The notes under the pieces: model-generated
Databases searched by the model: none
Seen by the model: the letters and a program-made list of their open reading frames with translations, nothing else
What the model was told of the DNA's origin: nothing
Shown: piece by piece, positions 4,170 through 36,327 of the stretch
How positions within the stretch are numbered: the stretch's first letter is position 1
How the letters are laid out: each line of letters opens with the position of its first letter
DNA from: Marsupella aquatica
Taxonomy: Eukaryota > Plantae > Marchantiophyta
Assembly (NCBI GenBank): GCA_973895155.1
Contig: OZ316895.1
Location: 20,164,803 to 20,228,802 of the forward strand
Direction: 5' to 3'
DNA length: 64,000 nt
Position numbers and translations under genes: made by a program

Positions 4170-4599
4170 TCTAACTCCCCAAAGATAACCGACTACATAA
4201 AATAATGATACATGGTAAAATATAGCTAGATTGAATGGTTGAGGGTTTCTTCTTAATCCAAGTCTCAAACGGAAAGAGCCATCGAGCAGTTATAGGATCC
4301 GTTGGGTATGGATTTTCTTACCGTTCAAGAAACAACAAAACCATCAATTCGGTGGATAGTTACTGTTGAATTAATTTTGTTGGCGTTGTAACCGACGAGG
4401 TAATATAGTAGCGCCAGGCGCTAGCGTTTTCCACATCTGAAAGAGCCCAAAAATGAACAACAAAAGCAAAGATCAACGGCCATTTTGGTTAACATCTTAC
4501 GACAACTACTCATTATGACAACATTTAAGCTGAAATGTATCGGGTTTCCTTGGAAATAGCGTCTTATTTTTGGCAGACGACAATATTACCCTCTTCTAA

Positions 4600-4994
4600 T
4601 ATTAAAATCGATCCATTTGAGCTCTAGTAGAAGTTATCATAATAATAGCGTCAGGAGCTATCATAAAATTGATATAAATGTAAAGATGTAACGGTCATTA
4701 TTTATAGAAACTTCCACATTTTGGGTCCAAACATCTAAGCCATTTTGAAGTGTCTCGTTACTAGCGCCAGGCGCTATTATTGAAATCTACCCATTTAAGC
4801 CTTATTTGAGACTAAAAGAAAAATAGCGCTTGGCACTTTCATAAAATTGATAGAAATAGAAGCCGTTAATTACAGAAACTTTCTCACTTCAGTCCAATCA
4901 TTCGCATGAATTTTTAGTACAATGTTACTAGCGCCAGGCGCTATTATTAAAATCCTTCATTTCAAGATATATTTTAGTCTAGCATAATAATAGC
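4600..4994. repeat. Degenerate tandem repeat (~170-bp unit), each unit carrying two palindromes
   Basis: GTTACTAGCGCCAGGCGCTATTATT at 4757 and 4924; TCATAAAATTGATA at ~4661 and ~4839; AGAAACTT repeated. Confidence 0.7.
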
Positions 4995-5787
4995 GAGGTG
5001 TTTACAAAAGGCAGGAAAACAGGAAACAGGCATTCATAACCGAAACTGGTAACAGTGAAAATGACTGGTAACAGGAAAATTCTAGTCTCAAACTTCGGAG
5101 AAAAAAATTCTGGTAGCACCCGGCGCTGGTAAAAATAGCGCTGAAGGCGAGGTTTTTTTAAAAGACACCAAAAAAACAAACAGGAGTAAATATAAGAAAC
5201 TCGTACCGGTAGGAACTCTCCACGATTATTGCTAGCGTCGGGCGCTGTGAAGAGTCTATAATTTGTACCAATTGCACTCTCGGAGGATATTTAATGAAGG
5301 GGGCTATGAAATGTTCGATCTCTGAACGCTATTTAAGTCAATTATAATTAACCAAAACCTTTTAGTAGCGCCTGGCGCTACTACAGTAATCCCAGTTGAC
5401 AACCATCGTCTATTCCAGCCTCCTCCCGATCAGGGTCTTTCTAGAAGACATCTAGCTGCAAAGATCCATGACTATTCCCGCCAGTTCACCTAATACCACA
5501 AAATCAGGCGGAAAACAAAACATTCATGCAACCACAGCCCAGAAAGAATCCACACCCAAGAACCCTTAGAAAATTGGGAAGCGCCCGGGGCTAGCCAATA
5601 TTGCACCTAAGAACACGTCTTCACAACTCAAACTTCAAGAATCTAAAATAAAAATATAATAGTGACAATATGTTTGAGGAGCGCCTGGCGCTAGTAAAAG
5701 TTGAAAGGGCTTAAAATCAGCCAATTCATCGAAATGGTTACATATTGAAACATTAAATGACGTATTTGAAGAAAACCCCATTGCTAC

Positions 5788-5830
5788 CTATAAACTACCA
5801 GATGTTTCTGATGCGGAGCTTTCAGATCTG
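5788..5830 (-). pseudogene. Displaced last codons of the element B ParB-MTase gene
   Basis: Joining across the TSD restores ...KSTDRSESSASETSGSL*, matching the copy C ending ...SIDRSGNSESESSNLE*. Confidence 0.8.
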
Positions 5831-6160
5831 GAGGTATTCTATTGTGCGAGCAAACAGGAGTTTTGCTAGCGAGGACAGCAGGCTAGCGAGGCAAGTTTGC
5901 GCGTAATCTGAGGGTAGTTAAGGCGCATTCCCAAGTAAGATTGTCAATATATACTGTGAAACAGTTAAGGAAAACGAAAATGCAGATACTTAAATATTCA
6001 CAAACTCAAAAATTGAGATCTTCACTACACTGAACTGAATGAAAGGCATCATCACTGTCAACAAAACCAGGTCAAAAAACCTTTCACAATCCATCTTTAA
6101 TAAAACTTTGGTATGACAAATATCTTCTGGAATGAGATTGCATCTGAAATTGACCATGAG

Positions 6161-9100
6161 TCATTGAGAATCCTCTGATTCCAAATCATCTGAGGAATTA
6201 CTAGGATCGCTACTAGACTCCCTATCAGTCTCCTCAGCCGAACCGTCAACATACTGTGCTACAGTCCCAGCCTCATCATCTATGAACTGAGGGCAGTAAA
6301 GGGCTTTCCGAACACCCCTCACTGACCGCAGACCTTTCCCCTCCCAAGTCAAAACGATGGGCGCTTCATCAACCTCCTTTGCAGTCTTTTCAGCATAGCA
6401 TGGAAGCACAAATCCCTTGTCAGGGGTCACAAGAAAATGATCCTCGATTTCTTTCCGAAGACGGAATCTCTCCTCCGAAAACCAATCCGAACGCCTATCA
6501 CTGAAGAAATCACCAGAATCGGATCAATACTAAACATCCAAAAATTCTACAAACAAAAGAAAAACACCAAATAGGGAGTTCTACATCAAAGGCCAAGTGC
6601 TTTACTCCAGGTCGAATTCATCCTTCTCGTCTGAAGGTCCTCCCTGATCATCTCCTGGGATGGTGAACTCATCATCAGACCCTTCATCTTTGGGATCATC
6701 GTTCTTCGGGTCTACGGCCCCTTTCAACTTCTGGGCATGTCTATCCAACACATTTGCCAAAGTTCTTTGTGCACACAGATGAAGAATGTCTCGATCTTCA
6801 ACACCCACAACAAATCTCCCAGCGTATTCCCCAGCGGCAAAAGCACTTCCATCTCCAACAGTCCAGTCAATGACAATGTCCTTTGGCAAAGTAAGGATCT
6901 TCATTACGGCTTGCATGAACCCAACTGACAATCTATTGGAACCTGCGAAAGCCGCCCTGGGACTGGGATCAGTTTTTGGGTAGCAAACACTCAACATCGA
7001 TTTATGGCGGGCATCCTCCGAGGAAGTCATTGGAACATATCCTGTATGTTTTGGGACTTTTGCCGAGAATTCCACCTTGCAGAAGACATCCATAATGAGA
7101 GTAACCACCTGAATTGAAAACGATAATACGTAAGAAATGGGCACTTTTGGTTAGCGAGCTCGCTAGCAAAAATTGCACAAAAAATATGGAGGATATCTTA
7201 CCTCGATGTCCATATCTGCCTGATACAAAGGAGATGAAAGCAAAACCGAATACTGCCGGACATGTTTAAATTTGTTCTTCTGTTCGACTGCAGAAAAAAT
7301 TTGCCTCATATGGTTATAGTCAGAGCTGTGAAGAACTGCGACATAACCATCATCGGCAAGCATCGGACGCATGACTCCAAAGAAATAATATGGTAATTTC
7401 TCACTCCAAACATTCCACTTCGGGACCTCCCGGTCTGTGACGCTTGTTCGATGACCCGTGGGAAGGAATATGAAACCCAAGTGAGCACCAATTCCAGCGT
7501 AATTTTTTCCGTTGATCATCACGGCGTTTGGGTGTTCGCTCGATTTGCTCATTCCAGACAACCACTGATCCGCATCGCCCATCCAAGGAGGTCTTACTTT
7601 CCTCTGGCTAATTGAGTTTGCAGTTTCCGTGAGATTGCTCTTCGCCAAGAAATGCCTCTCACTGTCCTTCTTAAGACCACACATTCGTGCTACTCCTTGC
7701 GCGACGCATGCTTCCTCCTCATCCGAGTCGGAGAGAATTTGGACATTGCGCTTCCTCTTTAAACGCTTGATTGAACCCAGGTCCACAACAGATTTTGTTG
7801 TGACCTCAACATCAGGAGACTTGGGTTCTTCTCCATCATCCGCCCCACTCTTCAAACTGCCAGAGGCTGCAGCCTTTCTCTTCTCTGAAAAACATGTTAA
7901 TGTCAGACAGGTGACTGAGACAAAATTACTCCGAATGAGGTATGAAAAAAGAGGAGAAAAAGACTTACTTTGCTTCCCAGACAAGACTGATCCATCTTTG
8001 GACGTGTCCTTCACCGGCACTTTCCGAGGTCTCCTCGATCTACTCCGGTCCACAATGGCAGCTACACCAAGAATAGCTTTCTCCATTGCATCACATCCGC
8101 CAGCCTCGGCTTCTGCAGGAGCTAATTTGGACTCTATAATGTACGACTCTGGTATCAAGCCTCGATTTATCATATGAAATGCTGCCTTCTCTGCTGTGTC
8201 AAATGTCACTGCCCATTTGTCTGATTCTAAATACCATGGACAGTGAAGGACTTCCCACTCACTCATCTTCCTTGGAGCCTCCACTCCCTCACATGGGTAC
8301 ATCGAGTACTCTCCATATTTAACAGAGGTTGGATCCTCTTTCACTCCTGCTATCCAAGGCGAGAAGCAAGCAGGATAGGACCACCAATATGTTTTGTCAG
8401 CAACTTCTCTATCCACAAAAAAACGATACGTATATCTCTTCGCCCTCCTCCGAAAAAGTGAGATGTCAATCTTCTCACCCGACTTTGGTGGCCAAATCTG
8501 TTTGAAAAAACGAGATTTCACTCTCGTTTGGAAATCTTCAAAGTCCTCCTCTATGTCAAGGATCAGCGATGGCTTTGTCTTCTCAGACGAAGTAAGGATC
8601 CTTGCATCTGGAACAGTTGGGATCAACTCTGAAATAATCTCAGACATGAGCGAAGAACAAATTGACTCAACCTGCTCCCAAATAGCCCATCGGTGAAGCC
8701 AAAGTTTTGTTTCGCTGTCCGAGAATTGACCAGGGTGGAAGTACTTCTTGCAAAGCTCAGGTCTGCATTGTGCCTCGAGGAGTACACATCTGAGCTGGGG
8801 AGTCAACGATGAGACACCCGTAAATAGCCTCGCACGATCGAGACCACATGACACATTACCCCTTCCTTTATCGTCTGTTCGTTGGGCCTCCTTCCTCTCA
8901 TGTTCGTAGTAGTTGTGCATCTCAACACACTTCTGGAAAAAGTCACCAAACTCAGGATTCAGGAGAGGTCCAATCTTTGGCACCTTCACATTCCAATCTG
9001 CCAGTTGCTCCTTCATCATGTCTTTGACTGCCATGTCTTGCACAGCTTTTGAAAGAGGTTCTCCTTGCGCTTCTTTCAGCTGAAACTTCTTCTTCAAATC

Positions 9101-10125
9101 TTCCGTCTGCGCTGCAATATTAGCAGCAGACAGAATGTACGTGCAGGCATCGAGTGTCATGTTCTTCGAATACCAAGCCGGTTTCCTGATATTTGCCATC
9201 TTCTGCTGGAAAAGTTTGTAGTTGTCTGCATCGATGATATCTTTGTATACAGAAAGGTCATTACTGAGAACCTTGTGGACTCTCTCTGCTTCAAGGACCC
9301 AAGAATTCTCAACGTGACATTGAGTCAACCTGAGCAAAAGAAACAGGTCAGCGAGATCGCTAACAAGAGGAAATGAAAGAATTGTATATACAATTCACAG
9401 CTTGAAGGAAAAGAAACAAACCTATTCAGCGCATGCATTGCCGACTCAATCTGCACGAATGAGTTCTTGTCACCCTTGAAAATTCAACAAACAACTCGAG
9501 GATGATATTTGACATCATGGGGATTCTCATCCGCAAGCTGCATCCATGAGTACAGACGATGATTTCCATCGAAAACACAGAACATTTTGTCTTTCAAAAT
9601 TTTGAAAGCTTCGTGAGAATCACATTCCCTCTCGAATTCTTCATTATGAAGAATCCACATGTCATCCCACGACTCCCGAATCACATCCTCGCACATCTGG
9701 ACAAGGCCATCTTCGCCGGTCATTTGGACGTAAAATCGAGGCGCATCTTTGATGTATCCCTGCGTCCGGAATTCATTCTTGAGTGTCTCGATCGTAGTCG
9801 AGTTAGTTTGTAAGGACCGAACGATCTGCATGTTTCGCATTCTGCAAAGGGGAATCCTCGGAGGAGCGAGCGGGAATCCAAATTCGTCATTTCCAAAAGG
9901 GAAAAGATGGCGATTGATGACAATAGAATAGGGTTCTGAAGCTCCAGGTTGAAACGTAGGATTCACAACATCTACTTGGTTCACCATCTTGGGCCTCCTC
10001 GGTGTTTTCAATCCCGCCTGGAGCGCCTTCTTGTTCACTGTAGACCTGGTCTCCCTTCGGCTTGACTCGACTGACTTGAACGATCCTATTGATGACAAGC
10101 TCTCGGGTGAAGACAATGGCTCCAT
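6161..10125 (-). pseudogene. ParB/Srx-like domain + central domain + beta-class N4/N6 DNA methyltransferase-like protein (element A); 5 predicted exons, one premature stop
   Basis: Motifs: RIPLCRM..VRSL..LKNEF..QGY..FCVFDGNHRLYSW (ParB/Srx-like); GFIFLPTG..RPMLADDGYVAV; FMQAVMKILTLPKDIVIDWTVGDGSAFAAGEYAGRFVVGVE (AdoMet-binding motif X/I). GT-AG introns 9421-9330, 7968-7885, 7201-7109 and 6605-6501 keep the frame. In-frame TGA at 9484-9486. Confidence 0.82.
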
Positions 10126-13100
10126 CAGGGGGTCCGTGAAGTGATAAGGGTATCAACAGGTCAAGGTCGAGGGCGACACGCTTTGCGAACATAAAAACAC
10201 CCGAGAATCGATCTTCCAATCAAAGACAGAATCGTACCCTCGTCTGTTGCTTTCACCTGAATGCTGCGCCCGGTCATGAAAAGAGATACAAATATTCTAT
10301 ACGACTCTTCTCGCAATCATTTTTCAGACAACGTCAGGTATACATGTACTTCCGGAAATACGAACCACCGAACTCACGACTGAAAGAAAAGTATCTAATG
10401 ACAATGAGACAGGTGTCCAGTACTGTACCGTACCGTTGACATGTAGGTACCCGTTGACCAATTCCAACGGATATAAACGGTCACAATGGTCTCTTATGAG
10501 GAAATGTTTTTGCTAGCGACATCGCTAGCCAAAAAATGACCACTAAATACATTAACTCCTGAAGGGTGTTTTGTAAGGATTTGAACAATTTTACTTGGTT
10601 CATTGAGCTAGCGAGATCGCTAGCTTTATCATTCCGCAAATAGAGTCATATAAGACAAAATAACGGTCAGATAATGGGAATAAGAGGCATTTATTAAATA
10701 AATATGTTGAGTCCAACACCTACACAAGCACATTTCCTCATATGTATTTGGAGAAAGAAGAGAGCGAAGTATCTCACATTGTGGATTGCTGTAGACTGTA
10801 ATGTCCAAAACTTCCAGCATGTCTTCATTGGGATCGAAGGTTGTGATCGAGAGAAAGACGACGGGTGATGTTGTTGTTCTGGATGTTCCGGAGAATACTA
10901 TTATCTCTGTCAAGGAGTCTTTTCTCTCATCGAGGTTTGGGCTTTTCAAAGATGATTTCATCTGGAAGTTGTTCGTTCTTTACTCTCGGGATGGATCCAG
11001 AAGTCACGAGGTGTCGGATAATGGTTCAGGAATATTGCCAGAAAGAGCTTGGGACCTAAAGGGTGGTTCAGATGTAGAGCTAGTCTCATGTAAGGATGAC
11101 ATTGCACATATCAATGTTTCCGATCCAGAATCCCCGACTCGACCGTCACCTGCAGTACCAGAAATTATTGACATCTCCCCTGAGAGTGTGGGTAGGGATG
11201 TCTCTTCTGTGTCGACAAAGTCTTCTGAGAAATCCGTTTTTGAAGCAGTGAGTCAAAACGAGTTTCAATCTAAGCCAGTTCTTTATCGAGTTAGTGCATA
11301 TGATGCCTTTCTCAATATTATTGGGTCAAGCGAGTTGGCAAATTTCCGCAGGGGAAACGATTGGAAGGAGATTCAAGTGCAGACTTTGCCCACTTCATAC
11401 AACGGAAACTGCGTTTTTGAGCTTCCTCCGGTGGAAGGTCAATTTCGTCGAGGATATGGTCTTCAGGACATGGATAGGGATAATGACGACTATCCATGGA
11501 CGAGACTTCTCACAACTTCAGCTAATCTCAAACCTCGCAATCACTGGTCTGTGTCAAAAGTCAGATGTGCCGGTGTACTTGAATGCCAAAATCTGGTCTG
11601 TAGAAAGTTGAAGCACACCGGTTCAAAAAATGACTCTTCCTTCCGAGGAAACGGACAATTTACTGAGCCGTTTCATCTTGGTGAGCTTGTGGAGGAAGGA
11701 GGGTTGGTGTGCGGATTCTGTGAGGAGAGGCCTCTCTGCATCCGTGAATGTCCAGCTAAGCTTTTGTACGTCTATCCTAAGCCGTCTCTTGAGTCAAATG
11801 TTGCGAAACATATGTCTCGATTGGCTGTTCACATGGGTTTCCATGACCACGTTGTTTGGAAGGGGAAATCTTGATTGGCAAAAAAGCAGGCGGAGGAGAT
11901 AGTTTCTGGTGTTCATAAAGCGAATCCCGTGTGTACGCCAGGGCGTGTTCTTAACAAGTCTATAGGAAACCTGGTTTCTCTTTTGCATCCAGAGTCTTCT
12001 TCAAAACTATCAAAAGAAGAAGAGAGAGAGATTTGGGAATCGATGAAGGTTGTGTCCACTGTTGAGAAATTCCAGGCCATATTCCGGAGCGTGAAAATGG
12101 ATAACCCAAAAAAGGGTGAGTTGGATTCTCTTCGTGAGATGCAAGCACGGAATAATTTTCCTTATGTTCAGAGGTACCTTTTCCCTGGGCAGGGGAGCAA
12201 GACCGATAGGGCTCATGTCTTCAAAATGAGTACAAATGGCCCAGGTTCTGGTGTCGATATTCTCAGGCAGATGAAGAGTGGAGGTGAGCTGGAAGGAGCA
12301 TGGGTCAGTTCTGATGTAATGCGGAGAATAAGCACTGGGTGGCTGACTTTCAGCGCCCATGTGTACGACCATAATTACAGGTCCCTTTGTACCATCTTCA
12401 CTTGTGAGCTCCGTGCGGAGGACTCCTTATCTCTTGAAACCGCATGGAGATATATGATTGAAGTTGCCTCTGATCATGATGTGCATGACCCACTCATTGG
12501 AGGATTTATTGCCGATAATGCCGAGGCTGGATGGATCGCCATTCGAAATGTTTTTTTTGGAGGTGTCCGTCACCCACAGAAGGAGCACAGTGACGCCTTT
12601 CACTTTGCTCAATCTCTTTGTCGTCACACATTGGAGGGTATTCGGGAAGATCGCCATCGAGAGCACTATAAACTGTGGGAAAGGGAGAGAACAGCACCAA
12701 CATATGTTCAGGCCTACCGTGTTGCTGACGAAATCCATTGTTGGTGGAAGGAAGGAAACTGCTATGCTGGGAAATTGAAGTCTCTCCAAGGATGGTTATC
12801 TTGGTGGGTCGTGAGGTGGAGGCAGTGGGGGAACTTCATCCGCATTGTAAGTGTCCAATTTCATTTCTCTTTGACGTCATTGTTTTTGCTAGCGACCTCG
12901 CTAGCATATCAGGTCTGACTGGGGACTACTTTTTGCAGACGCAAACCGCAATGGAGTCAGCCTTGATGCCAAATTGTACTGGAGCGGAATCAGTCCATGC
13001 ATCCATGAGATCCTGCCAAATGAAGAAACTAGTGGGATTGATTGAAGCATGTGAGGTGGACCAGAATCGTGCTGCGGGGCAAATTGCTGCTTTTACTGCC

Positions 13101-14950
13101 TACAGTGAAGGTGTTCACAGAGGCCAGGGGCCGACCATTTTTGAATTAGCATATAGGAACGCCGATGCTATGGGATCCATGGATGCTTACGAAAAGGCAG
13201 CAAATCTTTTGCTTGAGTCTTCAGCTAAGTATGAATTCTATAGAACAGTTCCATTACATGGCGATCTCCGAACAACATCCACGAAGAGGAAAGGGAAAGC
13301 TTCAGCTGTAATCCACGAGAATGACTCCCACAGACATGACAAGGTGTCACGCACAACAGCTTCTCCTTCAGGACTAAAAAGGCGTAATCTCTATCCTGAA
13401 TTTCGCTTCGTCAATGTTTCGGAGACTTCTGCGGACCCAGAAGTAGCAAATAATACAACTTCGGCAACACCTATCGGAGGTTGTTCTGCTAGAGTTATCC
13501 ATATTTCAGATGATGATGGTGATGATGCAAGTCGTAATGTCAATGATACCGTGAAGATGGGGACTCAACCTCAGTGTGATGTCGGGGATGACCATCGGGA
13601 TGCCCCCCAAAGGATCCCTTCCATCCGAGAGGTTGATGTTCCTTATGGGACCTGGCATCTCAGGCGGAGCGGTAGAGGTGCTGGACCTGTTTGCAACGGG
13701 TCGGTTGACCGAAGCGTTTTTGGAAGAGATGAATGTAGAAATCTCATCAAGGAGACTGGATGTAAGTCCGCGCAAGGGGGAATTGTTGGAGTCGCCATTC
13801 ATGGGTTGCGATTATCGTCTCCACATCGCCAGTTGTTGTACTTTTGTCCTAATAATAAGTGTCACAAGAGCCGAGGACACAGAACTCTAGCTCAACTACC
13901 CCCCCCACCCGAGTCGCTCAAGGTTCAGCGTGGGACTTGCCTCTCCCATCCCGAGATAGAGTTTCTGCTGGGATTAGGATTCCAGATCAGTGGACTCTCC
14001 TATGTGGATGCAAATCAAGTTGGAGAGTTCCCGTCCCCCAATCGGGTCAACCTACGAATTGATGTTAACTCATTCCCCGAACGAATTGATCTAACTAATG
14101 TGGACCGTCGGTTGAAAACTCGAAATGGTAAGGGTGCAAGACAGCGTTTCAGCAATACTCCAGAGTTGCTCAAGCGCATCGTTTCCGCTACACAAGAATA
14201 CATGAGAGTTGTCGGAAATGAGAAGGTAACTACCGGAAATGGATGGGGTTGGAGATACTTGATCGCCACTCACGAGACTGATTCACAAGTTCCGCACACA
14301 TATTGGGTGCAAATCTGTTGTTTCCCTTCGTGTTCTTGTGAAGACTTTTATAAGAGGCATACACGAGGGAAACCATACATGTCTTGTAAACATCTGCTGT
14401 GGGTGTATTTAAACAAGTTTTCACTCAACCTAGAGAAGGACGACCTTGTCAAACAGCCAATTCTGACTGTTGGGGAAGTGAGGAGTTTAATTCCGTTACA
14501 GATAGGGGACTAGTCGTTTATTGGAGATGCTAATTATAGGGTGGTGGGATGGATTACTCGAGTTTGTGGTTTCACAAATATCAATTTGTTTTCACCGAGT
14601 GAATCATAATGTTAGTGAGGTCCACAATGGTAACTTTTATGGTGTTTGAGTTTTCTGTTTACGGTTAGCAATCTCTCTAGTCTTAGGAAGTCTGCTGCAT
14701 CCTGACAGAAACATCCTACTTTCATACGTGTTAATCTATCGACAAGTTTCTATAGAGTTCACGGTTTGATCATTAAAATGACGCCAGTTTTTGGCTAGCG
14801 AGATCGCTAGTCTGATCAACGGTATCTAGGACAGGATGTGACAGGATGTTTAGGGTTTAGGGAGGGAAGTTTCCCCTGAAGTTGTTGTGGTAATACTCGA
14901 TCGAATTGATTTTCAAAGATGAACACAGTTCTATACTAGCGATATCGCTA
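7152..14950. repeat. Dispersed 14-bp palindrome TAGCGA-NN-TCGCTA (type A), confined to element A
   Basis: Copies start at 7152 (intron), 9349 (intron, 1 mismatch), 10514, 10609, 12890 (intron), 14796 and 14937. Half-sites or degenerate copies lie near both TIRs (5867, 16111). Confidence 0.9.
10801..14513 (+). pseudogene. MULE/Mutator-type transposase with GCM/WRKY-like Zn domain, DDE core and SWIM finger (element A); one premature stop, one intron
   Basis: Zn domain: WTRL...RCAGVLECQN..C...CPAK...HMGFHDH. DDE core: WVSSDVM, FIADNAEAGWIAIRNVF, DAFH, CTGAESVH. SWIM: CSCEDF...CKHL. In-frame TGA at 11872-11874; intron 12847-12938 (GTAAGT...TTGCAG). Confidence 0.88.
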
Positions 14951-15136
14951 GTCTGGGAAAGGTCCAACAGTGACTTCAAAATAAAAGTACTATGTGCGAA
15001 ATGGCATTCCGGAGAAACACATAGAAATGAAAGGACCACCCAAACTTTACTTCTCATACATATTGAAAGTACATGAGGACATGCGGTTCGCTTGTAACTA
15101 CAAAAATTTCAGTAAATCCACAACCTGACTCTACCC

Positions 15137-15565
15137 TCAGGGGCTGGACGCCTTCCATGCATCGGAGTCAGTGTCTGACTCTGAATCGTAATCCGAAGAG
15201 GCGAGGCGTTCCTCGGTCCAGTAGTCATAGATCTCCCTGTCAATCCAATACTGATCCTCTTCTGCGAGCCTCTTCCTCTTCGATACAACCTCGCGCTGTG
15301 TGGTATCCACCTTTGGCTTCGGTGGAGACTTTGCTGCTGGAATTAACTTTGGAGGAGTAGGTGTTCTCCTCAATGATGATGACGATCCAACAGATTGACC
15401 GAGTTCGGTTGGGACACTGCTGCCTGAGGAGACCTTCATAGTCTCTGCATCGGGTTTCTGCTTCGGAGGAGAGTCATCTTCAACCGGGCCATCTGTCGCC
15501 GGGTTGTAACGACGGATCTCAAGTCGCCATTTCCACTGAGGAGGATTTCTTGGAACACCAGACAT
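15137..15565 (-). CDS. Small third ORF of element A (Pro/Ser/Lys-rich, acidic tail), unknown function
   Basis: About 140 codons from MSGVPRNPPQWKWR, lying between the transposase and the right TIR. The N-terminal RNPP..W.R motif is echoed at 35035. Confidence 0.45.
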   Translation of the reverse strand: MSGVPRNPPQWKWRLEIRRYNPATDGPVEDDSPPKQKPDAETMKVSSGSSVPTELGQSVGSSSSLRRTPTPPKLIPAAKSPPKPKVDTTQREVVSKRKRLAEEDQYWIDREIYDYWTEERLASSDYDSESDTDSDAWKASSP

Positions 15566-16321
15566 TTCTTTGCACTTACGAAACCCAAACAATGATTAAA
15601 GAGAACAGGATTCAACAAATGGAAACATTATTCACGGTGGAATACGATGAATATCATGCCTTGTCGGAGAGTTCTTCCCTTAAAACAGCTCAAAGAATAG
15701 ACCCGTGCTTACCTGAACTAGATCTGGAGAGTGTTGAGAACTTGGAACACTGATAGCAGTTCCGAATGAAAGAGATCAAGTCGGAGGTGGTGGAAGTGAT
15801 CGGGAGAATGATTTGGAAGACTGGTGGTTTTTGGGCTAGCGGATTTGTTTAAGTGGACGGTTCGACGCCTTGGATTCGAGTCTGGTTCGAACGATAAGTG
15901 TCCCGTTCACTTGCAAGTGACTTAATTAGTGTCCAAACGGCCTTAATCCTCCTTTCCTTGGTAGTAATGACACGTTGATTCTTTTCACGCGGGAATCGCG
16001 AAGTACTTTTTTGTTATTACTCTTCCTCAGGTGGGAATTTTCACATGTGGAAGCCTGTACGTGGAGACCGTACCTCGTATGAGTGGCTCAATGTGTTGGC
16101 ATCATTAGACTAGCGATTTCGATGGCCTGAAGATATGTCATTTTGATCTATTGCATTCACGGGACTAGAATCGTCCATGGGTAGCCGTCTATATTTATTG
16201 ATCGAACAGGGTCTCCATGCTAGCGAGGAATATTCCAGACCTTTTTTGGGCCCCAATACAAGGTGACATCTTGCCCGTGCGAGCAAAAATTCTACTGTTT
16301 GCTCGCACGTTACAATTACCC

Positions 16322-21019: not shown

Positions 21020-21175
21020 TTTGCTTTTATTAGCGCCTGGCCTTACACATAAATTGACGTTACATGGACCCCAACCTTTTGGATTGTTATGAATAGCATC
21101 AAGCGCTGAACATAAATTGACTCTGCATGGACCTCTACTTTTGCAATGTTTTTAATAGCGCCTGGCGCTATTCAT
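21020..21175. repeat. Short tandem repeat (~63-bp unit) carrying palindromes
   Basis: TAGC.. motif + ACATAAATTGAC..CATGGACC repeated at 21031 and 21094, with a third palindrome at 21156. Confidence 0.65.
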
Positions 21176-23230: not shown

Positions 23231-23248
23231 TCCCCGGCAGCGGTGCCA
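23231..23248 (-). promoter_or_regulatory. Primer-binding site TGGCACCGCTGCCGGGGA
   Basis: Close to the TGGCGCCGTTGCCGGGGA (tRNA-Asp type) PBS of Athila/Tat-related gypsy elements. Confidence 0.7.
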
Positions 23249-23743
23249 AAAATCTCATGTAGTTTGAGAGGTGACATTGTTCCAGATTCTCTGTTTCTCA
23301 GCTAATGAACTCGTTGAAACAAGGGTAACCTTGGGCTCTCGAGGAAGGTAAGCGTTATGGGGAGAAGTAGATTTCTTACTCTGCATGAGAAAAGAAACCA
23401 CAAAATCTAGGGCATAAGCTGCCAAATTTCCAAAATATGCTAGAACTAAATCTGGATCCTCCACCTCTACATCACCCTGAAGTAGCATCACAGCAAGAAT
23501 GGGCCGGAAATAGAGAGAGTTAGTCCAGAACTCATCAAATTGTGCCATCTCCAATCTGGAAGTTCCAAAACACCTGAGGTCGAAGATATAACTGGCCTCT
23601 GTCTTCTTGAGATAGTAGTATTTCCAGAACTCTCCAACCGGTGGTCTGTTGGCCTGCATAATCTTACAGGTCTCCACATACCTGTGCACTTGGGACTCTG
23701 GATGTCTCGGGTATCTACTCTCGATGGTGGCATTCCGGGGTGT

Positions 23744-25351: not shown

Positions 25352-28300
25352 AGCTGCAACGGTGATTTGCGTGCTGCAAAGGTTGCTTTCAAAGAGAAAG
25401 AGCAAGTGAATAGGGGTGGTGAAAAGACAGGAGTGAGCGCCTGGACTCTGTGCTTGATTCCTATCAAGGTATAAAGTCCCCAATCCGTTTCTAAGTCCCG
25501 TTGCGAAGTTAGCCGTAGCGCCGTAACGTACACTTTCCTTTAACGCATAAGACATAGGCCGTAACTCGTATTGGCGTAACTTAAATACCGCGTAAACCCG
25601 TAAACCCGTAAACCCATAACTCGTATATGCGTAAACACGTAATAGAGGACTCATAACTAAGTTGGAATAAGGTTTACACTTGGCACTTTAACAGCAACAG
25701 CAGGTTTAAACACTGTAAAAAGTTTAAAATTTTCAGTAATTTCAGGTTTTCGGTATTACCCAATACTCACAAACCAAATCAAGGAGATCGGTAATCCCCT
25801 CAGAGGGATCCAGTGGATGTAGTTGCTCTTTCCGATAGTGACGATGAGGAGCCACCAAGGATCCCCTTCGTGGAGCCTTCGGCGCCTGAAGTGGTCTTGG
25901 TCAAAGAGGAGATGCCATCGTCGCAATCCCATATTGTATACCGAAGAAGTACAATGGACGCGCTGCTCAAGTCAACTGGGTCCAGCAAACTTTTGAGGTT
26001 CATTTTGGCTGGAAACTTCCGACATGAACAAGTACCTTGTTTGCCGCCGAAGTACAATGGAAATGTAGTGTTTGAGTTGCCTCCATCATCGGGAATTCTT
26101 TCAAAAGGATCCCGTCTACGGGACATGGACCGAACCAAGGATTGCTACATCTGGACTAGAATATTTCCTACCACTACAAACGTGCAGCCCAAGAAATACT
26201 GGGAATTTGGTAAAGTCACTCGTACTGGATTTATTGAGTGCAGGAATAAAACTTGTGACTACTTCCGTCGAAAGAAGAGGAGGAATGCAAAGGCATGGGC
26301 TGGTACCCCAAAACTTGGAGGCTCTCACCGTGTTGGATCGTTCATTGAGCAGGGTGGAGTGGTTTGTCATTATTGCTAGCAACTCCCTTTTTGTGTAGAG
26401 GCATGCTCTGCAAGACTGTTTTATATGTATCCTCAAGTTCTGCTTGACTCAGATACCTGTAGTCACATGTCTTGCCTTGCTATTCATATGGGCACCCACA
26501 ACCATCCTTGTCGTAAGGTATTTTCCCAGACTGCGGAAAAGGTAGTTGAAGATGTCATAAAAAAGAAATTGGAAGGCAATCAGACTTGGACGCCTGCCGG
26601 GATTAAAAATGTAGCGACAAGATCTTTTGTACAATCTTTGTGTGAGAGCCTGGGTGAGATTGAAGATATCGAAGAGACAGAGATTTTCCAGTCTCTAATG
26701 GTAGTTTCTACTCCACAGAAGTTTGCATCTCTTTTCAGGAGTGTTAGGCAGGACCAGAAAGGCCGTGGAGAGTTGGATTTTCTTGTTCGGTATCAAAAGA
26801 ATATCAACATGCCTTTTCTACATAGGTACATCCTTCCAAGTCAAGGATCTCAAGAAGACAGACCTCACATATTTAAGATGACCTCCAAAGGCCATGGGTC
26901 TGGGGTGGATCTTTTGCGGCAATTGCAACCTGGAGGGATGCTTGAAGGTGCCTGGGTAAGCTTCGATGTCATGAAACGAATGACCAAGGATTGGGTGACT
27001 TTCAGCGCACACGTTTACGATCACAATTACCGCGCATTGTGTACAATATTTACTTGCAAGCTAAAAGCTGAGGACACGGCGTTGTTCGAGAAGGCTTGGA
27101 GATTAATGATTGAGGTTTCCAAAGAGAATGGGTTAGATAATCCAACCATTCATGGCTTCATGGCAGACAATGCCCAAGCCGAATGGTTAGCAGTCCGAAA
27201 TGTTTTTTTTGGAGGGCACCCAAACCCTGAACGGGAGAGGACGGACACTTTTCATTTTTACCAAGCTTTTCATCACCATTTGGTTGAAGGAGTGTTGGAA
27301 GAGAAGCAGGCGGAACATCGAATGCTATGGGATAAATTACGAAACGCACCAACATTTGTAGAGGCTTACCGACTTTCAAGAGAGATTGACCTATGGTGGC
27401 AGTCGGGTAACTGCTTACCTGGAAAGCTCCGAATGCTTCAGAGTTGGATATCATGGTGGGTCGTGCGTTGGAGGCAGTGGGGAAATTTTATTCTCTTGGT
27501 GAGTAATAGCGCCTGGCGCTTGTAATATGCAAGTCAAATTGCTTTGTAGAAGTACATTTTTCAGATGACATTCCTCAACCTTCCATCCAAAGAATCCAAA
27601 TAATGTAATTGATTCTCAAATATTGACCTGTTTATTTTCATAAACATGTGATTACACAATAATATTGATGGTTTTGTCTAAATGTTCTGCCTAGCGCCTG
27701 GCGCTAGTATGTTTTGCGGATTCTTACTAGTGTTTATGCTTTGTCGTTCCAGGACAAAAGTGCTGAAGAAGGCGCTAGGATTCCTAACTGTACCGGGTCA
27801 GAGTCTGTTCACGCAGGAATGAAAGCATGGGTAATGAAAAAAAAGCTGGGCTCTTTGAGGCATGTGAAATGGATCAGAATTGAGCTATATCGCAGGTTGC
27901 AGCATATACCACATATCGGAAAGGATTGAGTAGAGGAAGAGGTCCTACAATATGGGAACTGGCTTTCCGTTTAGCTGACCAGGCAGGTTCCCCAAAGCTA
28001 TTCGAGGATGCGATGAACATGCTCCTCTCCAATGCAGCTGAGTTTGACTTGGAGAGAAGCGTTCCTCTCAACAGAGATGTTCTAACAAAGTCTGTCAAGA
28101 GGAAAGGACCTGCAACTGGGATTGTCTCGCCACAAGACTCCCACCGGCATGATAAAGTCCTTATCACATCGCCGAATACCAGATCAATCAAGTGTAAAAA
28201 TCTGCACCATACAATGTTTGCTTCTGTATCGGAAGAAAAACCTGATGACATTTCCGTTGTCAATCTCTCAGGAAGTGATGATTTGAGGGATGTAGATCGT

Positions 28301-30365
28301 GATGATTTCAGTACACCGCAGAGTCGACATCAATCACGTTCAACACAATACCCACAAAGCGCCCCCACTGTACTTCAACAGACATCGCTCCAATCTCCAG
28401 TTCGTGAAACAGAAGTCATGCAGGGTTCATGGCATCTGTGTCGGACATCAAGATTTGGGGCCGGTCCATAGTGCAACGCATCATTTGGCGGTAGTTCCGA
28501 GAGAGATGAGTGTCGAAATAGAGTGAAGAAAGTTGGGTTCCCCTCATCAAACGGTGTCATTGGAATTGTTGTCAAAGGACAACGCATGTTCAGGGGGGAA
28601 CCCATAGCCGAAATGATATGGTTCTGCCCAAACAACACATGTTATCGGGGCCATCCCCGCCGTGGTGTAGTGAACCTGCCCTCCGTTCCTGATGTTCTTC
28701 CTGTTATAAAAGGAACAAATGTTTCGGAAGCTGAGATGAAGTATCTTGTTGACCAGGGAATACCTATAGCCCGAGGAAGAGACGGTCCTTTACCTCCACC
28801 ATCACTTTTTGAGCTTCGAATCAACGTTAACTTATTTCTAGAGAGAGTGAATCTTTTGGAACCCATTGTTTGTCTCCGAAGTCGGAATGGAAAGAACACG
28901 GTTCCTTGATCGACCTTGACCCATGGTCACATGAAGAGGATTGAATCTGCAAGAAAAGAGACCATGTCCGTCCAAGGACAGTGGGATGTTTCTATTGGGA
29001 ACTCATGGGGGAAGCAATTCAAAGTACAAACACATGAGAATCTAAGGACGCCGAATAGTTACTTTGTACAGATTTGTATTTTCCCGACTTGTTCTTGTGA
29101 GGATTTCTATCATCGACATTCTCGCAGACATCCATATATGCCTTGCAAACATTTGTACTGGGTTTTCCAGACCATTTTCAAACTAGACGTTGAGGAATCT
29201 ACTTTGACCAGCCAACCAATTCTCACAGTTGGAGAAGTCCGACTGATCTTGGAGAGGGAGAATGCTCATGGTTTATAGAGAAGGATATATTTGTCCTATA
29301 CTTGAAACGGTTATATTAGTTTTTGTCGTATTACAACGGTATAGTTTTATGTTAGCGCCTGGCGCTGGGATGGAAGTCTTCCTTATTATCATTTATTTCA
29401 TTGTAATCCTATCACTACAAATGATATTTTAAATTTTTGTTTCCCACATTATGCATTCATCCAATGTCATTTTCTAAATGGGTTGGTTGTTTCCATTTTA
29501 GCTAGCGCCAGGCGCTAGCCCATCGCCGATGGTCTTTCAAATTGTCCAGAGTTTTCATTTCTGGTTTTCTGCCTTATTGTTGGCCTATAATATTATGTTA
29601 CTTATGGTGGAACCAACCATGTCAATGTTTTTTCCCATGGCATTCACTGGTAAATGTTTGTGTGTATGTGGTTTTTGGGACACTATTTTCCAGAAGTATG
29701 TTGGTGATTCCGGACTCACTTATCATCAGACAACAATTGTTGCCCTGTTAGTTGGTTCTAAGCTCTAGAATGTAAATGAAGCGTAATGCATATTGCTTTT
29801 TTTCAGATGTATCTGGCTTGAAGTAATGAAGTATTATCCTGTTCCAATGACTAACTTTTCCTGGTAACAGCAACCTGTTCCTAATAACAGCAAAAAAAAA
29901 TCTGCTACCAAAATTCTTGTTTTCCTGTTTCCTGTCTTGGTGGCCATACCCATAATAGCGCCAAGCGCTAATATTAGCTCGAAGTAGAATATTGACATAA
30001 ATGGTCTTTTTAAACGGTAACTTTGACCGTTTATCGTTACAATTTATAACAAATTCCTGGATAAATATATTCACGAGTACCTATAAACAAATTAAAATGT
30101 GACAAGTGTCAACCTTTAGTAGGTTTGCTTTTGGATGCTCGTGCTTTTCCATGTGTACTTGTCATACATGTCGGTCTGCCACAAGGTATATCAGATAAGA
30201 TCTTTTTGCGATAGTGTCTTCCTTGATCGTTAGAACGACCTCTACGCACATTTAGGGTCGTTGTCAATCATTCATCCATATTGATACAACACCACAAGAA
30301 ACATTGCATCACGCGAGAAGCACGTTGCGGTGCGGGTTCCACGTGTGTGTGCATCTTAAACAAAC

Positions 30366-33300
30366 ATGGAGAATCATTCTCCTGGCTATTCTGAAACATC
30401 CGAGTCCTCATTCTCCGGATCAGTTTATACTCGGAGAGTCACTCGTTCGTCTACGTCAAACTCTTTGCGAAACATTAGTCAGGCAATTCCAAAGCCAAAA
30501 CGAGGCATCATGGAGTCTTACGGAGATTTTGCGATGGAGGACGGGAGCGAGGGAGTTTTGTCCATGGATGCTGTGATCAAAAAATACGCAATGTCGTTTG
30601 GAGTCAATTTCAGGAGGGAGAAGAAAGAGCCGCCGCGTATCCCTCTTTGTCGGCTTGTTCACATGGAAATCATTCAGACTTTACAAAAAAATAGTGCATC
30701 TATCGATAAGCTCAAGGATTCATTTTGGAGCTCTAGGTACAACTCTTCAATTGGGATGTGGTTTTACGTCCAGCCCGCGGATTCAGAAGGAGTCGTTCAA
30801 TTCTGCACGCCAAAAATTTGGGAGACCTAGGATGTTGTTTGGGTTGCCCAAAATAACTTGTTTGAAGCAGAATGTGCAATTGATCCAGATTTCCACATTT
30901 TGAAGGATAAGATGTTCTGTGTTTTGACGGGAATCATCGACTCTACTCGTGGACCCAAGTAACAAATGAGAATCTAGACAATATCAAGTACCATCCGCGT
31001 GTTCAATGCATTGTTTTTAAGGGAGATCGAGGTTCTCTAGTTGAGCTTGAAGCGGCTATGCACACGGTGAACCAGTAAGTATTCCTCAAGTTGCATAAAC
31101 GCTATTAAATTTGATCGATTGCGCTTGATTTTTGCAAGGTTAGTTAGCGCCAGGCGCTAATATTTGCCATTATATCTTACAGGTTAGGGCAAGATGTGGT
31201 GGAACCATTGTGGATTCTTGATGCCAATAGAATCAATTGGATTTTAACTCATGACTTGGAGGCCTACAAGCCGATCATCGACCCCAACAGCTTCAAGCAA
31301 TTTCAAACTATTTGTGCCAAGACAAGAAAGGGGTCTTGGTATACCAAGCAAATGCCATTGGAAGCATTGGTTTACATCTTGTGTGAAAACAAGATTAAGT
31401 CGTATTCACTTCAATTTAAGCTTGACTTGGCTGTTGCGACAAGTCAAGGTCGCCCGTGGTCATCTGAAGAGACTGGTAAGCGGTATGCTGCCATGATGAA
31501 GGAGGCAACGAAGGAGTGGAGCATAAAGACATCCAAGATTACCCCCTGATAAGCCCAGAGTTTGGTGATTTTTTGTCAACTTGTGCAGAAATGTACATTC
31601 TTACAGAGAGGAACAAACGAGAAAAGAAGCCGGACTCTGTAGTCTGTACAATGGACCGCGCGCGTCTGTTCACTATTGTCTCCTACTTGGATCCACAACT
31701 GCACTATACTCTTCTTGTCGCTCACTGTACACCCGAGCTCAGAAAACAATTTTACCATCCCCCGAGTGTGAATGATGACCCTGTTAAACACTGGTGTCAT
31801 ACATGGCACATGTGGAGTTTGGTGGAAGGAATTGCAATTGCAATGTTATAGACATCTCTTTCGCAAGTCCAGTCAATCCTACCTGCTGATCGTCTGACGC
31901 TAGGAGGAGTGGAGATGTTTGAAGCTTTGGTCTTGAACATCACCAATGATTTCAAGACATATAGTGAAACAATGAAGGCAAAGTTTTTTAGCACAATTTG
32001 GCAGTCCAAGTACGGAGACAAGGAAGACTATACCATTTGCAACCAGAAGCGAGCTAAGAGATATCTCTATCGTTTCTACATGGCGATGGAGACCAGTTCT
32101 CCAGAGTATTTTTGGGCTTACCCTCCTGCATTCCAGAAATGGTCCGTTCTAGAGGGGGATGCTTTTAGCAAAGTTTACTCAATGTACCCTGCCGAAGGGG
32201 ACGTTCCACCACGTGACATTTCATTGTGAGAGATAACCCACTGTCCATGGTATCTTGACACAAATAAGTGGGACACCCCTTTCGATGAAGCTGAAAAGGA
32301 TGCATTTTTGAAATTATCAAAGTCTTTAGTGCCTTGGAAAGTTCTCTCTGAAATGAAACAAGGTTTATCGGAAGATATAGATGCCTCGGCGAGCGAGCTG
32401 CAGAAACATTGCAAAACAGAAGTTTTGCATGTAGACTAAAAACCCCGGGCGAAAGCAAAAGTAGACACTGGAGTAACCAGCTCATCAACATGATCCGGGA
32501 AGAAACGTGAGATTCTTCTATTTTCCATTGGCATTCTGTATTTTCCCTCCCCCAGCTTGATTATGTCAGTGACTTGTGATGAGCGCCACAGATCAAGTTG
32601 TCTATTTATCGGTTGATTTTTTGGGTAGTTTGGTTAGCGCCCGGCGCTGGTGTTATGTGGACCGTAATCTTGGAAACTTTTGTATCTTTTTCTAGGTGGA
32701 CAAAAATTGGATGGAGAAGAAACACAAGATGCAAAGACGACTATCACTCCTGGCGTCTTTGAAGCTGATACGGGGGAACAAGATGTCCCTGGTGAACAGA
32801 CTCCTCCCAACACGGAGAAGATGGTGCGACCAGCAGATGCCACCAGCACAAAGAAAAAGAAAAAGAAATCTTTGGATCATGGATTTTCCTCTCGGGATTT
32901 GGTCGCTTCTACTGGTGTTCAACGAGATGTTGGACAGTTCAAGTCTAAGACTTCTAGGCATGTTTTTGTTGAGTCCAGCGTAATGGACTTCTTTGAGAGT
33001 GTGTTCACGAAAGAGCAGAAACCGGCTTTGGTGTCAAATGTGGAGAATTGGGTGAAAGACCTAATCTTGCTTGGTCTAAGGGAGAAAGGAGTCATAAGAG
33101 GAGGAAAGATAAGATCATTTGGAGTTGATGCTGGATTTGTTTACCTCCCAACTGGACTGCGCCCATCCCTTTTAGAGAAGAAGTCTCCAAAATGGAATTC
33201 CCCAGATCACAAATTGTTGGTTCATTCTTTTGCGCAATGGACCCCTTTCTAGCAGATGATGGTATATTGGCCATTTTGCATACTGGCAAGTATGATCAGA

Positions 33301-34573
33301 TCTTGCAGGTCATCATCGCAAGCTAGGAGTCTCAAAAGTTTCAGTGTGTGAAAACCCTGAACGTGGTTATGGGAGTTCCAATTGACATGGCCCAAAGTGA
33401 TTGTCAGGTAAATTCTCTCACTCTTCGTGCTGTCCTTTGTTAGCGCCGAGCGCTAGCTAAAAATGTTTTCATATACCCTTTGATTAAGGGGATATTCTTT
33501 GTTAGCGCCTGGGGCTATCCAAAATTCATTGTTATGCCGTGATTGTAATGATTTTCTGGTTGGATCGTCGGCATCTTAACAAAGGACTTGGTTGGGATTT
33601 CACAGGTTTTCACATTGAGATTGGATCTGTTCAGTCGTGTTTTGTTAAAGGTTAAGTTTCCAAAGGACCCCAAGTTTCAACCCCTCTCTGCAACTGAAGA
33701 TCCTTCTATCACTAACCTTATTGGTCTCCCAAGTGTGAGGAAGGATCCAACTCCTTCAGCAACGTTTGCTGGCAATGGACGCTTGTCCGTTGGGTTCATG
33801 CAATCTGTGTTAGAGTTAATCACTCGGCCGGGTGACATTGGCATGGACTGGACTGTGGGTTTGGGAAGTATATTTGTTGTTGGTGACTATTGTGGTTGTT
33901 TTATTCTTGGTATAGAAAACCGAAAAGAGTTTGTTGAGATTGCGGAAAAGACATGGATGGAGTTATTGATTCCAAAAGATGTCAGTTCCTCATCTCCCGC
34001 TAAAGATGTGGGAAGAAAACAAAAAGATAAAGTTTGCTCTATCTTAAATTTTGACTTTGAAGATGAAGAGGAGGGAAATGCGGTTGGAGATGATGCTTCA
34101 GGGGGACAAGGAGAAGATAATGAAGGAAACGAGAAGGAGAGGCATACAATGGAAGAAACATAAGATTTGGATTCTTCTGAGTAATGCCCGTAAGCTACTT
34201 CACTTTACATTATCAATTCTGGAACTGTCCCATTTTCATTTTCAATTCTAATGTGGTTTCGTTCCTCTTCCAAATTGGAGTGGAATCTTCAAGAACGTTT
34301 TAATCTTCAGAGGAAATACTCGAGAAAAGTTCTCGTTTCTCCTCACGAGCCTTTCGTGTTCCCTCGTATGCAGAATATGTTGTACGCAAAGAAGAACAGA
34401 TGAGAACACTTACTTGGGAGAGTAAGGGCTTAAGGTTAAGGAGAGGTTCAGATAGGAAATTCATCCATCAGCCTTTACTCAACGATGGACCTAGAAGCAA
34501 ATTTATAGATGATGAAGCCGAGTCTATCGATAGGTCTGGCAATAGCGAGTCTGAGTCTTCTAACTTGGAGTAG
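30366..34573 (+). pseudogene. ParB/Srx + methyltransferase-like gene of element C (heavily degraded)
   Basis: PPRIPLCRL, DGNHR (~30926), MDRARLFT, AGFVYLPTG and TRPGDIGMDWTVGLGS..FILGIE. Same introns; multiple stops and frameshifts. Confidence 0.85.
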
Positions 34574-34819
34574 GTTTAGTGTGAATTTCTAAGGTTTTCT
34601 TTGGAACCTTGTACTAGCGCCCGACGCTATTAAATTGGATGTTCGGATCTGAGCCTTTAAAGGAGATAGACGCACCGGAAGTCTCTTTCCTGAGTGCATA
34701 TTTGTGCAGATATCAGAAATGCATGTACTCGTACAGTTGTACGGTGAATAATTATACCTTCAATCTGTACATATTTTTGTTTGTGGATGATATGATCGTT
34801 TGGACTCTCTCAAAGTGTA

Positions 34820-35000
34820 GTGTTTGTTCAACTTCGGGTTTGTTCAACTTCGTGTTTGTTCAACCCTAAACGCATTTCTCCCTTTCGTTTCTGTGAGGCG
34901 CCGACTCACCTCTTCCCTTTGTTTTGTTTGTGCACCGCCCAGACTCACCTCTTCCCTTCATTTCGTTTCTGCTCTGCCCGGACTCACCTCTTCTCTTCTC
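34820..35000 (+). repeat. Two short tandem arrays (GTTTGTTCAAC-containing 16-mer x3; ~40-bp GACTCACCTCTTC unit x3)
   Basis: Directly visible upstream of the ATG at 35035. Confidence 0.8.
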
Positions 35001-35034
35001 CCTGAGTTTTGCATACGTTGTTTCCATCGACTCA

Positions 35035-35505
35035 ATGGATAAGGGGAAGCAAATAGCAAAATCAGAGAGCCGCAATCCGCCAAAGGCGATGGTTTGGAGG
35101 TCGATTAGAGATCCGGGTTTAGATTTGACTCCGTCTTTTACGTAGTGCCCAGAGACGTCGACCGAGAGGAACAGGTTGTGGCTGGCCCTGGATGAGGGTA
35201 TTAGCCACGGAATAGGACACCTTCCATCGCGTGATCCTTCACCTCCACTTCCTTTTTGAGAGAGGTTCTCTGTTCACGACCCGGATCCTTCCAATGTGTA
35301 TCGGGTTGAAAGGACATCTTTTTTCAGAGACATCCAAGCAGACACCGGACGTGTGAACTTTTCAGATTCGAACATCCCGAATGACCGGAGTCAAAGTCGC
35401 TATCCCGGACCTCATTTTTTTCTGGATCGAGAGGATGGGTTTCGATAGGATGAGGATAGGTTCAAAGCTGGATTGGATGACGACTGCATGTCTTCTACGT
35501 CCTAG
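35035..35505 (+). pseudogene. Degraded small third ORF of element C
   Basis: MDKGKQIAKSESRNPPKAMVWRSIRD... followed by in-frame stops; weak match to the element A ORF3 N-terminus. Confidence 0.3.
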
Positions 35506-35959
35506 AGAGTGTGGATTTCTTCTCCGACACTAGCACCTGGCGCTAGCTTTCATCTCATCGTTGGAGTCGTTCATGAGTTTGATTCATGTCATCTTTTTGA
35601 ACGGGGGCTCTGGTTCGGCCGAGTTAGCTTTATTGCTCTTTCCATTTTACTATCGCATTAGGTTTTTTGAGTATGTTATTAGGGTTATTTCTTTTTCTCA
35701 AAGGTTATGGACTTTTATTACCTTTTGGATATCAATGTAATTTCTTTTTCAAGTAGCGCGTGTCGCTAGCGCCTGGCGCTACTAATATATGTTCTATTTT
35801 CCTCCACAATTATGTAAACCCGCCTCTGTAAAATTGTGTCTTTCAACTCTCTTTTTTCTAGTGTCCTCCAAATATGCTGCAAATATTATTAGTGGCTCTT
35901 TTATTGTTGAAATTGGTTGTTTCCTGTTATTGGAATCTGGTTCTTGTCATATGGAAAAC

Positions 35960-36064
35960 CCCCTTAAGCTTGATCCGATGGATTTGGTCTTACCGAGCCA
36001 ACCAATTTTGAATGTCGGAGAACTCCAGTTCATCGTAGGAAGGGAGAATCTGCATGGTTTATAG
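35960..36064 (+). pseudogene. Orphan copy of the transposase C-terminal tail
   Basis: SQPILNVGELQFIVGRENLHGL* versus element B SQPILTVGEVRLILERENAHGL*. Confidence 0.7.
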
Positions 36065-36327
36065 GAATTTGGATCATTCAACGATACATTGAACGGACAT
36101 TTTGTTAATGTTGTTTTGAATGGCAACAAACTCTTGGTTAGCGCTCAGCGCTAGTAAAACTGGTCTTTCCATAATTGCTGTATAGAACTCTAAACATATT
36201 GGAGTTCCTATTGAAATTGGTCTCCTTTTTTGTCCGTAATTATGCCATCTTTTGTGTATGCTAGTACCAAATCTCTTGTTTTGTTCCTCTCTTTTTCCTG
36301 TTATGATTGTTACTGTTTTCTATTTCC

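Follow-up and report, generated by a model that had tools for sequence, protein, structure and literature searches.

Three nested Mutator-like elements (MULEs) occupy much of the first 36 kb of the 64-kb window analyzed here (the whole stretch, positions 1 to 64,000, taken from contig OZ316895.1 of the liverwort Marsupella aquatica), and their noncoding DNA is seeded with a short palindrome, TAGCG-N4/5-CGCTA. Each nested element pairs a transposase gene with an accessory gene, head to head, and element A (5831-16321) lies within B (4996-29951), which lies within an outer element, C/D. The palindrome set is real, nonrandom, and element specific. We lean toward the reading that these palindromes are loading sites for the ParB-like protein that the accessory gene encodes, in an antisilencing system resembling those of VANC and VirB.

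Palindromes occupy noncoding element DNA

Scoring the palindrome either exactly or with one mismatch in an arm, we found 25 exact copies in the 64 kb, 24 of them within 4409-36153; 100 shuffles of the window gave a mean of 0.03 exact copies and a maximum of 1. With one arm mismatch allowed, the total rises to 37, of which 36 (24 exact and 12 with one mismatch) lie within 4409-36153, a number that fits the “about 40 copies” reported in an initial annotation of this DNA. All ten coordinates cited there do carry a palindrome, but only six are exact; those at 9349, 17325, 27507, and 32635 contain one mismatch. The remaining 31.4 kb of the window holds a single copy, at position 24. This exact N4 palindrome (24-37), the only one outside the elements, stands next to telomere-like AAACCCT words.

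Exon and intron counts were taken from gene models built on GT-AG splice signals and homology, from which splicing and expression are inferred. No palindrome falls in the 18,273 bp of exon (0 of 36; P = 7e-17 under a model that spreads copies uniformly over element DNA), 13 of the 36 fall in only 1,758 bp of intron, and 23 fall in spacers and arms. The earlier statements that exons are empty and that most introns are occupied (10 of 14) both hold, as does the proposed VANC-like distribution over introns, spacers, and arms. The palindrome-free introns are the fourth in each of the three accessory genes and the second in the A accessory gene. A 4.2-kb insertion in B (21.6-25.8 kb) likewise contains no copy, exact or with one mismatch. 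On average there is one palindrome per 0.7-1.5 kb, and the longest palindrome-free stretch in each element is 1.5-2.3 kb.

Palindrome form switches between families and outlasts its flanks

The spacing of the two arms segregates with the element. All seven palindromes of A (7152-14950) are N4, with those at 7152, 9349, and 12890 in introns, those at 10514 and 10609 in the divergent spacer, and those at 14796 and 14937 in the right arm, whereas all 29 in B/C/D are N5 (7/0 versus 0/29; Fisher 1e-7). The base after the core behaves in the same way, with half-sites TAGCGA and TAGCGC counted 18/0 in A and 7/44 elsewhere (P = 3e-11). Thus, the joint N4/5 pattern of the initial annotation is real but comprises two separate element-specific motifs that were overlooked, and the proposed specificity of the sites for their own element is supported. 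From 131 candidate stretches, one independent locus, L001, was obtained; it carries three palindromes of a third form, N4, in the same-position transposase intron, and its transposase is closer to that of A (65% and 57% identity) than to that of B (58% and 48%). The single viral match to the motif (L002) falls in phage-like coding sequence that no family profile matches, and it was counted as chance.

Could a host transcription or chromatin factor bind these sites, the elements having accumulated them to attract it? Such a factor would explain why A, B/C/D, and L001 all share an unchanged TAGCG core, but a single factor would not predict that spacing and sixth base switch as a block between nested elements, and we consider this origin improbable.

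Both arms follow one half-site matrix, and the symmetry reaches the center of N5, where the position adjoining the central base is C in 51 of 58 half-sites. As read from these sequences, this is as expected for a dimer that would sit on DNA, not for an RNA stem. The distinction matters for a second alternative, namely, that the palindromes are RNA hairpins controlling how element transcripts are spliced or how stable they are. Each of the three accessory genes has in its first intron (9330-9421, 19558-19649, and 31075-31182) a palindrome whose 3' arm ends 19-23 nucleotides (nt) from the acceptor and either forms or adjoins a CTRAY word resembling a branch point, and one L001 copy (1172-1231) has a 23-bp perfect inverted flank, the hairpin scoring about -61 kcal/mol for a 94-nt stretch. 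However, most copies (the 23 noted above) lie outside introns, positions in the other introns range from 35 to 231 nt, and symmetry at the center could not pair in an RNA hairpin. Moreover, self-complementarity of the flanks in B/C/D does not exceed that of cross-copy controls (P = 0.33), flank symmetry in A is marginal (P = 0.02 by matches and 0.25 by run), and there was no Rfam match. We therefore regard a hairpin function as highly improbable.

When the motif was removed from orthologous intron pairs (n = 15), none of the pairs was similar, the best being reached by 37 of 300 shuffles, and the spacers of B and C/D align at the motif alone. Given the same sites in orthologous introns and spacers whose flanks cannot be aligned, the palindrome was retained or formed anew as the sequence around it was replaced. 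It had been argued earlier that perfect copies surviving in decaying DNA point to function. That argument is weak: decay is light (of the stop-prone codons, 2-10% are now stops, a count that includes some intron codons), and at such a level 24 perfect copies of 36 are explicable without selection, so that their survival shows no ongoing selection. Better evidence for function is the persistence of sites in orthologous introns whose other sequence turned over. The same persistence bears on whether the palindromes are neutral footprints of local duplication, of fold-back events, or of a micro-element. The degenerate 170-bp units at 4579-4995, the flanks common to 10490 and 12866, and the long L001 palindrome would suit such an origin, but copies persist in orthologous introns despite unalignable flanks, keep to nesting boundaries, and avoid the neighboring 35 kb; we give this explanation very little credence. 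Of eight Tandem Repeats Finder rows, only 35754-35781 contains the motif, and degenerate units occur otherwise at 4579-4995 only.

The accessory protein combines a ParB-like fold with a degenerate methyltransferase fold

The A accessory gene (6161-10125, reverse strand) has five exons, with introns at 9330-9421, 7885-7968, 7109-7201, and 6530-6605 and one nonsense codon in exon 1; it encodes a ParB-fold domain, a helical domain, a methyltransferase fold that lacks the catalytic motif, and an acidic tail. Its counterpart in B (16331-20250, reverse strand; last codons at about 5788-5830, beyond A) has the same ParB, helical, and methyltransferase folds, is broken by stops and frameshifts, and matches Pfam N6_N4_Mtase at 16694-17272 (E = 6e-8). 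The C gene (30366-34570, forward strand), the most decayed copy, has palindromes in introns 1-3. We found 169 relatives of the accessory protein; of the 30 looked up, 15 carried an organism name, 12 of them from Riccia sorocarpa and 3 from Calypogeia fissa, both liverworts, and these are labeled “hypothetical” or “unnamed” at NCBI.

The ParB fold was read on a structure model of a Riccia homolog, P0039. Residues 134-305 of this model have a ParB/Noc/sulfiredoxin fold, which fills the top four Foldseek rows, all weak; by VIA, the 11 best rows for the region are Noc, ParB, PadC, and KorB (Z of 5.9-6.8), and superposition on 7bm8 gives 3.1 Å across 99 residues. With these moderate scores, the ParB/sulfiredoxin nucleotide-binding fold is supported on the Riccia homolog, and with it the earlier assignment of a ParB domain. 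Box II (GxxR), the nucleotide-binding motif of ParB in the available text of PMC12704722, is present as DGNHR, intact in all three window copies (A, B, and C) and in 11 of the 14 Riccia rows listed. The helical domain (306-700) is modeled confidently; in the whole-protein model it reached only Z of 2.5-3.3, to sigma-factor chains, and gave no clear helix-turn-helix match, and Noc alignments to P0039 reach residue 520 at a high root mean square deviation. Sequence profile searches of the PDB returned no match, tblastn of the ParB exon against phage gave no real match, and a viral fold library yielded none at an E of 0.001 or better, several ParB-named rows being among the weak ones. No ParA partner was found among the element open reading frames (ORFs) scanned, and the ParB here is at most an orphan.

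The C-terminal domain has a beta-class amino-methyltransferase fold in which motif IV precedes motif I. The S-adenosylmethionine (SAM)-binding motif I, DWTVGxG, aligns with DPCAGSG of a phage enzyme, L004. The catalytic (D/N/S)PP(Y/F/W) occurs in none of the 32 rows with letters at that position (36 aligned, with P0160 misaligned); the window copies read FLPT, YLPT, and YLPT, at a position set by alignment to DIPY of L004. Because the catalytic motif is absent from the three window copies and from all aligned relatives, it seems unlikely that the methyltransferase marks the element, and the earlier proposal that it does so is not upheld.

A proposed loading mechanism

A 14- to 15-bp dyad and a ParB fold with a nucleotide motif together point to the accessory protein as the binder. 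We posit that a dimer of this protein would recognize the dyad with the helical domain that follows its ParB domain and that nucleotide binding at DGNHR would close a clamp or an oligomer. Sites every 0.7-1.5 kb on average would let the protein load anew along stretches of exon, which would not themselves tolerate sites; site-free stretches of 1.5-2.3 kb at most suit such repeated reloading. Protein occupancy would block or reverse host methylation in a VANC-like manner, and the methyltransferase fold would serve as a noncatalytic DNA-binding or dimer module. Site and protein would drift jointly, such that each family would protect itself only.

Several points weigh against this proposal. The background for enrichment is the 64-kb window itself, a local rather than a genome-wide control. 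The ParB fold comes from a homolog that is 31-35% identical to the window copies over the ParB exon; its ParB region has no Foldseek match at an E of 0.001 or better and Z values below 8, and a Pfam scan of the accessory proteins detects the methyltransferase only and no ParB. L001, a single independent locus, has no accessory gene within 2 kb. Some phage ParB proteins that partner DNA-modifying enzymes have no DNA-binding domain and withstand mutation of their nucleotide-binding residues, according to the portions available of PMC13229309. Finally, the transposase and accessory genes travel together, so that covariation of the motif fits either protein as the binder, and the transposase carries a GCM-like DNA-binding domain of its own.

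Is the transposase then the binder? On this alternative, which we judge unlikely though far from negligible, the transposase would bind the palindromes through its GCM-like domain and activate or autoregulate the element, leaving the ParB protein as a cofactor or with another job. There is precedent in Spm TnpA, which binds subterminal repeats. The GCM-like domain, claimed earlier and borne out for this Mutator transposase, is seen in a modeled homolog (P0002; match to 1odh, probability 1.0, E = 6e-3), and element specificity is predicted equally. Four strong lone half-sites of the A type (15.5-17.9 bits) lie within 220 bp of the A ends: two at 5862 and 5879 (5862-5890, forward strand), on the inner edge of the left terminal inverted repeat (TIR), and two near the right end, at 16106 and 16216. 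Furthermore, a Mutator transposase is by itself sufficient to demethylate its cognate copies and activate them, in the part of the preprint available (bioRxiv 10.64898/2026.08.24.746577). The same preprint, however, describes sharp AtMu1 transposase peaks at TIRs, and the TIRs here contain no full palindrome: those of B lack even a half-site, the mirror position in the right TIR of A holds only a 3.5-bit half-site relic, and the word that the TIRs do share is a different one, AAACAG. We count the absence of full palindromes from TIRs, set against the AtMu1 peaks, in favor of the accessory protein and against the transposase.

Architecture of the nested elements

Element A (10.5 kb) has imperfect TIRs of about 45 bp and only N4 palindromes (half-site GCTAGCGA), and its 9-bp target duplication, TCAGATCTG, stands at 5822 and 16322. 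Its ends are the best terminal pair of 3128 direct-repeat pairs, barring two overlapping matches in coding DNA. A was inserted in the last exon of the B accessory gene, and its excision in silico restores a frame that matches that of C. Element B, which contains A and the 4.2-kb insertion, carries 15 N5 palindromes of the TAGCGCCWGGCGCTA type, including four exact pattern matches in its divergent spacer (20717-21170). Its 9-bp target duplication, ATAATAGCG, at 4987 and 29952, is the best-ranked pair, and its termini form a weak TIR (inverted identity of 22/40).

On its left side (4169-4995), the divergent spacer of C/D holds four N5 palindromes within degenerate repeat units of 167-178 bp, and the spacer resumes at 29952-30365. 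A 170-bp unit continuing across the point of B removal was considered and dropped as not significant (8 of 200 shuffles). Five N5 palindromes lie in the C downstream arm (34571-36345), along with a fragment of a transposase 3' end (35950-36064). A probable element end stands at 36345; a search for its partner target duplication found none. The fragment, which is 58% identical to 29177-29275, is perhaps a remnant of a further element. The target duplication and the head-to-head arrangement lead us to assign the D transposase piece and the C accessory gene to one outer element, a pairing that is less certain. An N5 palindrome (29956-29970) stands at the B insertion point, its left arm falling in the B target duplication; the palindrome that B interrupted belonged to the outer element (4987-4995 and 29952-29970), and one of the two mapped insertions is located at the motif. 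The nesting of three relatives, with other DNA elsewhere in the window, may reflect targeting of relatives.

The A transposase gene (10801-14513, forward strand; intron 12847-12938) has one nonsense codon and encodes a GCM-like domain, a DDE core, and a SWIM finger. The residues D, D, DAFH, and ESVH, which we take to be the DDE motifs, are visible, as is the SWIM CxC..CxH, which scores an E of 0.006, under the Pfam cutoff. The B gene (21398-29278, forward strand; intron 27499-27752) is split by the insertion at about 21591-25794, a CpG-poor segment that has short CGTAAACC-like repeats at either end and contains three ORFs without a Pfam match. A third transposase, the D 5' piece (3780-4169, reverse strand; profile match E = 6e-7), is truncated leftward by other DNA. 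The transposase N termini (P0002-P0008; 3858-4169; 21398-21577) share a conserved domain that is rich in beta structure and about 85 residues long. P0002 matches ISCth4 (E = 2.5e-5), of the IS256/Mutator type, and no relatives of the transposase were found by a scan of prokaryote genomes and viral contigs. An IS256/Mutator-type transposase together with 9-bp duplications places A and B among the MULEs, for which the accessible text of PMC6446971 gives target-site duplications of 8-11 bp, long or short TIRs or none at all, and, in many cases, a SWIM finger.

Other features of the window may be noted. By a plain density count, the divergent spacers (4169-4995, 10126-10803, 20250-21400, and 29961-30366) contain 5-7 AACGG/CCGTT words per kb, against 1.4 per kb in 36346-64000; these words resemble the MSA/MYB3R cell-cycle element. 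Low-complexity extra ORFs lie in the right arm of A (15140-15595, reverse strand) and the downstream arm of C (35035-35500, forward strand); the two do not align to each other, and no counterpart was seen in B. Farther along, a 4.6-kb direct repeat (42314-46940 and 53165-57791; 99.5% identical), each copy with an open frame of 1100-1200 codons, flanks a gypsy-type gag-pol at 47757-53176, and an older related pol lies at 62547-63467.

Significance

If the loading reading is true, a bacterial chromosome-partition module would be at work in plant chromatin, as a compact, sequence-specific means of opening about 10 kb of silenced DNA. The elements offer a predicted protein together with two natural sites, cognate and noncognate, whose spacing differs by a single base, and clamp loading is a mechanism open to biochemical testing. 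A fuller version, which we advance tentatively and think less likely than not, would have liverwort MULEs use a phage-derived, nucleotide-gated ParB clamp, fused to a dead methyltransferase, that loads at family-specific palindromes, slides along and unsilences its own element in a manner convergent with VirB and VANC, and draws in insertions of relatives. What is already known is a ParB gene beside inverted repeats, proposed for red-algal Plavaka elements in the available part of bioRxiv 10.1101/2025.02.11.637652. New here are a fusion of ParB with a pseudomethyltransferase, carried by liverwort-type MULEs, and dispersed dyads whose spacing switches from one family to another. Within the literature searched, which did not extend to RepBase and subscription journals, the available texts contained no description of a land-plant element with a ParB-methyltransferase fold (PMC4738411, PMC6431247, 10.1101/2021.02.12.428880).

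Comparison with known systems

The closest likeness in working is to VANDAL elements and their VANC proteins in Arabidopsis. In the sections of PMC5735166 available, a Mutator element and its accessory gene go with short, family-specific, noncoding motifs; VANC21 binds introns, intergenic regions, and terminal regions; the motifs differ between families and are absent from the exon probes tested. VANC motifs, however, are 8-9 bp, nonpalindromic, and tandem, whereas those here are dyads of 14-15 bp and mostly dispersed. In addition, the accessory protein here is a fusion of ParB and methyltransferase folds, and demethylation is only proposed. Besides the methyltransferase, the accessory proteins gave no Pfam match that would indicate a VANC-family protein, and no direct comparison with VANC was made.

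Plavaka elements of red algae resemble the present elements, by description, in being DNA transposons with a ParB accessory gene (PAG3) and inverted repeats, which were proposed as sites of their own ParB-2-oxoglutarate (2OG) oxygenase protein; the cassette also has an adenine methylase gene, PAG2, and homologs were reported in Chondrus Mutator elements (bioRxiv 10.1101/2025.02.11.637652, available portion). There, however, the fusion is to a 2OG oxygenase, the methylase is separate, tandem repeat arrays flank the gene, and the transposase is of the EnSpm type. Here, in land plants, ParB and a C-terminal methyltransferase fold share one protein, the sites are dispersed through introns, and the transposase is of the Mutator type.

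With bacterial ParB/parS, Noc, KorB, and VirB, the shared features are a ParB fold with GxxR and a dyad of similar length (PMC12704722, in part), and VirB, a ParB homolog, loads, slides, and counters silencing (PMC10770331, in part). The present elements differ in having no ParA partner, a setting in eukaryotic chromatin, a larger unrelated helical middle domain, and a C-terminal methyltransferase fold. Phage ParB_N-N6_N4_Mtase fusions such as L003 have the same two domains in the same order, and ParB-methyltransferase fusions are enriched in phages in the available text of PMC12704722; such fusions are the likely source, we infer, of the accessory architecture. L003 differs in keeping DPPY after the SAM-binding motif, a different permutation; the plant accessory proteins align with the motif-IV-first enzyme L004 but have lost the catalytic motif. 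Marchantia MpDN4MT1 is likewise a prokaryote-type beta-class amino-methyltransferase fold in a liverwort, but it has TSPPY and is active, and the part available of 10.1101/2021.02.12.428880 mentions neither a ParB domain nor a link to transposons. On the features tested, the elements are MULEs that resemble VANDAL/VANC in working and stand outside VANC, PAG3, and the active methyltransferases.

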